From Heterodontus francisci (lineage: Eukaryota), in NCBI RefSeq assembly GCF_036365525.1, contig NC_090395.1:68044966-68108965 (forward strand): a stretch of DNA of 64,000 nucleotides, given 5' to 3'. Shown here one piece after another: positions 9,163-9,198 of the stretch. The notes under the pieces are model-generated. The model saw only the letters and a program-made list of their open reading frames with translations. It was not told where the DNA came from and searched no databases. The position numbers and the translations under genes were made by a program. Positions within the stretch are counted from its first letter, which is position 1. The number at the start of each line of letters is the position of its first letter.

Positions 9163-9198
9163 TTGTCCTGATGAGTGCAAGATGAAAAGCTTTGACAA
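9163..9198 (+). ncRNA. Minimal type-I hammerhead ribozyme motif
   Basis: TTGTC-CTGATGA-GTGCAAGAT-GAAA-AGCT-TT-GACAA: perfect 5-bp stem I, intact CUGAUGA/GAAA core, short stem II, palindromic loop 3, NUH triplet UUU. Confidence 0.7.

Follow-up and report, generated by a model that had tools for sequence, protein, structure and literature searches.

In metazoan Penelope-like elements (PLEs), minimal type-I hammerhead ribozymes (min-HHRs) with a G10.1-C11.1 pair reside in the terminal repeats (pLTRs), occur as thousands of dispersed single copies and inverted pairs, and carry a palindrome in place of helix III, which is 6 nt long in the Drosophila virilis type (PMC4209133). Their helix II comprises 3-8 bp. 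The supplementary alignment of that study contains 56 motifs, all but a few with an extra base after A9, and the shortest segment between the core and GAAA measures 11 nt there. Helix III was proposed to form between copies, dimers cut weakly, and related hammerheads cut poorly in vitro (PMC4209133). For an element of the anole, it was reported that cutting was not needed for insertion in vitro and that the ribozyme cut only with protein present (PMC11167929). Those Penelope hammerheads that have been tested are slow. Two other groups of ribozymes are relevant for comparison. In pseudoknot hammerheads, helix II is reduced to G10.1-C11.1 and its loop is engaged in a brace of ~6 bp, which is attached to helix I and needed for speed (PMC3088659, PMC11300833); the tested representatives are microbial or metagenomic and possess a stable helix III, and in the crystal form the brace is contributed by a stem-loop, helix IV. 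Type-I hammerheads located before ORFs of fungal RNA viruses have a very short helix II and a long helix III, with no reported brace, and cutting by viral hammerheads was linked to translation (PMC13725137).

The locus described here lies in a 64-kb window of the Heterodontus francisci genome, the window being the whole stretch of DNA that was analyzed. The motif reads TTGTC, CTGATGA, GTGCAAGAT, GAAA, AGCT, TT and GACAA (9163-9198; Table 1), and its family shares with the PLE hammerheads of PMC4209133 the type-I layout and core, the NUH site, G10.1-C11.1, the 6-nt palindrome replacing helix III and the location in a pLTR. A descriptor consisting of the core, a helix II of at least 2 bp, a palindromic helix III and a 5-bp helix I had its sole match in the window at 9168 and none in 200 first-order Markov sequences of 64 kb each; the bare core occurred about as often as expected by chance (7 found vs. 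5.8 expected). The letters and the descriptor match bear out the original prediction, namely that the hammerhead is of the minimal type I and has a palindrome as helix III. The AAGCTT palindrome (9187-9192) is predicted to form helix III between copies, and the cut is expected after 9193. No hammerhead match was returned by an Rfam search of the window with E-values up to 10, and the Rfam hammerhead models did not match four intact loci either; the braced compact form described below shows why standard searches miss the motif.

Table 1 Features at the hammerhead locus, with positions given for the 64-kb window.
Feature	Position	Strand	Basis or remark
Short hAT-like element with inverted repeats (MITE), left part; unrelated neighbor	9048..9121	+	BLAST ~9048-9086, four loci
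5'-truncated 3' stub of a Penelope-like element	9122..9226	+	89-94% identity to 29 copies, ~105 nt
Decayed TATA box (putative)	9123..9128	+	9125: T in 39/42 copies, C here
5' strand of the predicted pseudoknot brace	9154..9160	+	Damaged here at 9157 and 9159; covariation across families
Helix I, 5' strand	9163..9167	+	Sequence; two-sided changes at each of the 5 pairs between families
Catalytic core C3-A9	9168..9174	+	G10.1 and six of the seven core positions (nearly) invariant in alignment A3
Helix II segment, 9 nt	9175..9183	+	G10.1, 7-nt brace-pairing loop, 11.1 (C in the family, T here)
G12-A13-A14, palindrome AAGCTT (9187-9192), position 17	9184..9193	+	Sequence
Helix I, 3' strand	9194..9198	+	Sequence; covariation
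Start codon (ATG 9200) and first nine ORF codons	9200..9226	+	Read-through copies continue into the ORF

A BLAST search of the genome, which had been proposed together with the prediction, showed that the motif is multi-copy rather than single-copy. With 9000-9320 as the query, only ~9122-9228 found matches, in many places (best 40 at 89-94% identity), and a 34-nt form of the motif with both CpG sites left open had 3,487 exact genomic matches (1,729 plus 1,758), whereas the reversed control had 0. Similarity extends further upstream in most copies, in the first set over as much as 1.27 kb, many copies have an inverted partner nearby, and inverted self-matches were present in many loci. The frames upstream encode reverse transcriptase (RT) motifs followed by a GIY-YIG-like domain with two cysteines and two histidines. 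Pfam matches of these decayed fragments remained below the curated cut-offs (best RVT_1 match 26.5 vs. 29.6 bits; GIY-YIG E-value 0.04), and a separate Pfam search of decayed fragments gave no hits. One ORF fragment found 399 longer proteins with up to 63% identity, an RT family being present in most of those listed; pieces of open frame taken from natural copies align along full-length homologues of ~840 aa, and the homologue P0016 bears PF00078 and PF01541. The copies were linked to the RT/GIY-YIG ORF when linkage, on which the identity of the element hinges, was tested: the stub lies downstream and on the same strand in 27 of the 30 loci selected by RT, the stub or a piece of it stands directly in front in 16 of the 30 loci selected by the 5' part of the ORF, and one locus (L041) has the terminal repeat at both ends.

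The family N-terminus, read from the ATG corresponding to window position 9200, matches the full-length homologues P0010, P0019, and P0021, so that the window holds a terminal repeat plus nine codons. The motif had been placed outside any Penelope ORF, which proved wrong: counted from its predicted cut, it stands 6 nt before the family start codon (3 nt in family B), and the first codons of the ORF occupy 9200-9226. Among 83 copies, the 3' ends are concentrated at 9225-9226 and 9249-9250, a two-end pattern of the kind that was attributed to two internal priming sites (PMC11167929), and the stub in the window, composed of the terminal repeat and the ORF start, belongs to the short-end class without a tail. 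Hence 9122-9226 is almost certainly a Penelope-element stub.

In their organization these elements resemble the EN+ PLEs (PMC8557442, PMC11167929), with a single ORF of ~840 aa encoding RT and then GIY-YIG, partial-tandem pLTRs, inverted 5' pieces, 5' truncation, an optional tail of ~25 nt, and ends inside the ORF start. A DKG motif before RT is present, as is the CCHH signature with two cysteines between the GIY and YIG equivalents and two histidines downstream; unlike in the EN+ PLEs compared, the two nuclease cysteines are one residue apart. The zinc-finger linker CX2-5CxxC between RT and nuclease was not found in that stretch of alignment A1, and because this linker is absent the architecture is Penelope/Poseidon-like according to the features given in PMC8557442. 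The missing linker argues against Neptune and Nematis, and DKG together with CCHH against Hydra; Penelope/Poseidon-like is a designation by architecture, the RT tree being made up of unnamed loci. A reading as a selenocysteine element (Naiad) was rejected due to the wrong domain order and scattered stops. As the copies are 85-90% alike and nearly all of the 108 scored ORF matches contain stops (a few segments are stop-free), the family is old and probably extinct in this genome. Shared flanks identify L104, L107, and L114 (contig C34) as well as L012 and L013 (contig C8) as segmental duplicates and not separate insertions.

The stub directly abuts half of another element. The predicted hAT-like terminus at 9048 is real, being common to four other loci with inverted ends and lengths of ~100-240 bp, one of which (L076) has an exact 8-bp target duplication, and 9097-9117 resembles, by eye only, the interior of these four relatives. 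The label 'hAT' is putative and based on the 8-bp duplications. The right end of the element is absent from the window. It had been suggested that the ribozyme is carried by this DNA transposon or belongs to an uncharacterized small retroelement of the retrozyme kind, and both the direct junction of the stub with the MITE half and the shortness of many copies would fit such a carrier. We regard this as extremely improbable: the motif was present in 0 of the 4 MITE relatives, the MITE end in 0 of 91 other fetched loci, and no other fetched locus joins the MITE and the stub. The 5' ends are variable, as in truncated insertions; no head-to-tail array of short units was detected in the 30 loci that were self-compared, and the window contains a single copy. 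What the RT-selected loci show is instead the terminal repeat of an autonomous-type Penelope element, and its junction with the MITE is either a chance neighborhood or the result of a deletion.

A window-wide comparison confirmed that the other hammerhead repeat of the window belongs to a separate family. This second, unrelated repeat (47375-47512, 29666-29804, 34411-34540, 60155-60273, and 1926-2103) occurs mostly in fold-back pairs and is of the ordinary min-HHR type with a 5-bp helix II and the extra base. Its hairpins account for the Rfam microRNA matches at 1949-2041 and 47375-47458, and the long element at L041 harbors one nested copy. The window also contains two tandem arrays, one of 33-34 bp units at 9862-10524, which begins 640 bp past the stub, and one of 31-bp units at 21260-21561.

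The most conspicuous difference from the published PLE hammerheads lies in helix II. The segment from the core to GAAA is 9 nt long in this family and three relatives and 8 nt in a fourth, with a G directly after A9; the long helix II and the extra base between positions 9 and 10.1 that characterize min-HHRs are both missing. The same compact form, with different letters in helix I, was found in four further families of related elements from metagenome contigs, and more distant elements have the usual long helix II. The AAGCTT palindrome is also present in three other families and is lengthened in one. In an RT tree restricted to loci with a recognized hammerhead, from which 9 of 42 labelled loci including the only family-C locus were dropped for short RT, the compact form makes up one branch (100/100 support; 12 of 33 rows). 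One of the rows designated compact, L131, has a changed core. L154 (minus strand 4590) and L219 (minus strand 3756) contain a further compact, hammerhead-like core, whose helix II segment measures 8 nt, in a repeat that is not tied to the matched ORF. Hammerhead-bearing Penelope-like elements were also detected in 18 contigs filed as bacterial bins (L208-L225; 10 in one bin), which probably represent animal DNA in these bins.

Intact copies show complementarity between the 7 nt that separate G10.1 from C11.1 and the flank 14 nt before C3. The longest flank-to-loop helix has 7, 7, 7, 8, and 5 bp in the five families and is located at -13 to -17 from C3, as compared with 2-5 bp in 17 long-helix-II motifs of more distant elements that served as controls. 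Shuffled flanks reached the respective Watson-Crick length in 410, 287, 202, 138, and 1,239 of 20,000 cases (0.7-6%). The brace letters differ among the five families, which belong to one RT clade, and complementarity is kept: in alignment A4 (7 rows, with the family-E row shifted by one base) all five central brace pairs vary two-sidedly, 94% of the cells are paired, and 0 of 500 shuffles matched the score. This covariation comes from five families whose own sequences had served to derive the structure, a circumstance that biases the comparison with the controls in its favor. Three families cross-pair with each other (7 bp, 4-5 of them Watson-Crick), the family-E flank pairs equally well with the loop of the H. 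francisci genome as with its own, and L130 and L133 have a brace mismatch.

Pairing of loop II with the flank of helix I and a G10.1-C11.1 pair, the combination that defines pseudoknot hammerheads, can thus be traced in the letters of five families and is broken in the window copy. A brace replacing helix II, which the original prediction lacked, is very probably real. The intact fold would likely consist of one G-C pair and a brace of 6-7 bp, with helix III closed only by a second copy. In contrast to the tested pseudoknot hammerheads, helix III would here be a bare palindrome, and unlike in the crystal form the brace would be formed by a single strand; the gap between the brace and helix I is 2-5 nt (judged by eye), into which a helix IV would not fit. 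A complementary 5' flank of the loop is a feature not described for the PLE hammerheads in the accessible parts of PMC4209133.

The same complementarity could also serve as an off switch, in which a 7-bp flank-loop hairpin encloses helix I and the core and prevents cutting until the RNA is refolded by the protein of the element or by a second RNA; helix II of the active form would be a plain 2-bp stem. This possibility agrees with the minimum-energy fold calculated for the window sequence, where the 5' flank pairs with loop II and the hammerhead is unformed, with the uncut RNA as the source of most genomic copies (see below), with the dependence of the anole ribozyme on protein (PMC11167929), and with the second helix-II pair, which is altered on both sides in family E. 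We nevertheless consider an off switch unlikely, since all five families retain G10.1-C11.1 outside the brace and the spacing of the brace to C3 is nearly fixed, as in the pseudoknot hammerheads whose brace speeds cutting (PMC3088659, PMC11300833).

Plain folding yielded the hammerhead neither for the monomer nor for two copies, with a program that does not model pseudoknots; the 36-mer monomer was not formed (z 0.68; +6.4 kcal/mol), and the monomer fold of an intact copy without the brace amounted to +3.9 kcal/mol, the AAGCTT palindrome duplex to -4.3 kcal/mol. The unfavorable monomer fold would be expected if the motif were a catalytically dead or nearly dead RNA signal, involved in protein binding or folding, that merely keeps the hammerhead letters. 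Family B would suit this idea too, with U3 opposite G8 and mostly U17 in all copies seen (L146:5086, L150:1359, and relatives), as would the viral hammerheads with a short helix II, which cut at only 0.01-0.001 per min (PMC13725137). U3 with G8 is listed also for one hemichordate motif (PMC4209133). Such a dead signal is very unlikely, however, given that the core stayed fixed while helix I was rewritten with compensating changes, in families whose RT proteins are only 48-69% alike. We assign a probability of about 0.8 to the explanation as a whole, a decayed Penelope stub with a braced hammerhead whose helix III is closed by dimerization. Penelope and pseudoknot hammerheads are both known, and their combination would be the new part; the paper texts searched yielded no printed description of a braced hammerhead in Penelope elements.

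The two TG dinucleotides at 9183 and 9193 had been suggested to be decayed CGs, and the majority of C in 43 RT-selected copies confirms this view (9183/9184: C 28, T 13 and G 33, A 10; 9193/9194: C 33, T 8 and G 26, A 17). Hand tallies of the first 100 of the 3,487 matches gave CG 45, TG 30, and CA 25 for the first CpG and CG 45, TG 30, CA 24, and TA 1 for the second. As CA at the first CpG removes G12, genomic copies decay without regard to catalysis. Every feature is intact in only 3 of the 43 RT-selected copies; for L086, an intact natural copy, a 45-nt stretch has 64 exact matches in the genome. Identity within the genome is 95.6% for the core vs. 91.5% for the flanks, which include CpG and subfamily sites. 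In the window copy, position 17 is T (C in the family), the upstream CCAAT boxes are cut off, and the brace has a mismatch at 9157, where 42 of 42 other copies have T, and a wobble at 9159, its best flank helix being 4 bp long and located elsewhere. With the brace, G10.1-C11.1, and the TATA box all changed, the window copy is very likely inactive. Other pieces of the family were not found in the 64-kb window, hence there is no partner copy. No clear target duplication was seen around the stub, where the only match, of 4 A/T bases, overlaps the element, and contigs of guessed type from four of 24 public runs contained related family copies, none of them spanning the locus or informative on transcription and cut ends. 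Most likely the locus is a dead fragment that shows no sign of a host function.

A TATAWA element lies 46-50 nt before C3 in 4 of the 8 motifs examined and in 4 of 5 families, with CCAAT boxes upstream. Transcription usually starts 30 nt past a TATA box. Here the start would be at ~9152, just before the brace, and with this start the ribozyme would fill the first ~45 nt of the mRNA. Among 17 traceable 5' ends of copies, 4 fall at 9145-9155 and 3 at 9187-9200, the others being scattered, which points only weakly to such a start site. Helix III would then form between two copies through AAGCUU, and cleavage after position 17 would detach the capped 5' piece, the remaining RNA having a 5'-OH end 6 nt before the AUG. 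One of the fungal-virus hammerheads cuts 7 nt before a start codon (PMC13725137), which does not imply a common origin; in the anole element, in contrast, the start of the ORF is part of the ribozyme and precedes the cut by 26 nt (PMC11167929). An intact motif may well cleave as a dimer or with the help of a protein. Insertions probably came from uncut RNA, since 26 of 27 RT-selected 3' ends reach at least 25 nt beyond the cut site, in line with PMC11167929; this RT-selected set was used because the histogram of 83 copies is blind to copies ending at the cut site. New genomic copies would accordingly derive mostly from uncut RNA that was primed downstream of the cut site. The stub could have originated through an early end of reverse transcription, or through a later deletion by which it became fused to one half of a MITE.

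For the clade as a whole, we tentatively propose that the mRNAs start with a braced hammerhead which becomes fast once the palindrome pairs two RNAs, and which would act as a copy-sensing switch between translation and genomic copying; this is a speculative and rather doubtful extension of the reading given above. A construct restricted to 9163-9198 would omit the likely essential brace strand, and one cut at helix I would fail. The braced version offers a sharper test of Penelope hammerheads, since hammerheads with a pseudoknot are fast and a brace lends itself to disruption and rescue. If the proposal is true, the cut would remove the cap and place the new end within a few bases of the start codon, and the Penelope hammerheads would gain both a role and a well-folded test case.
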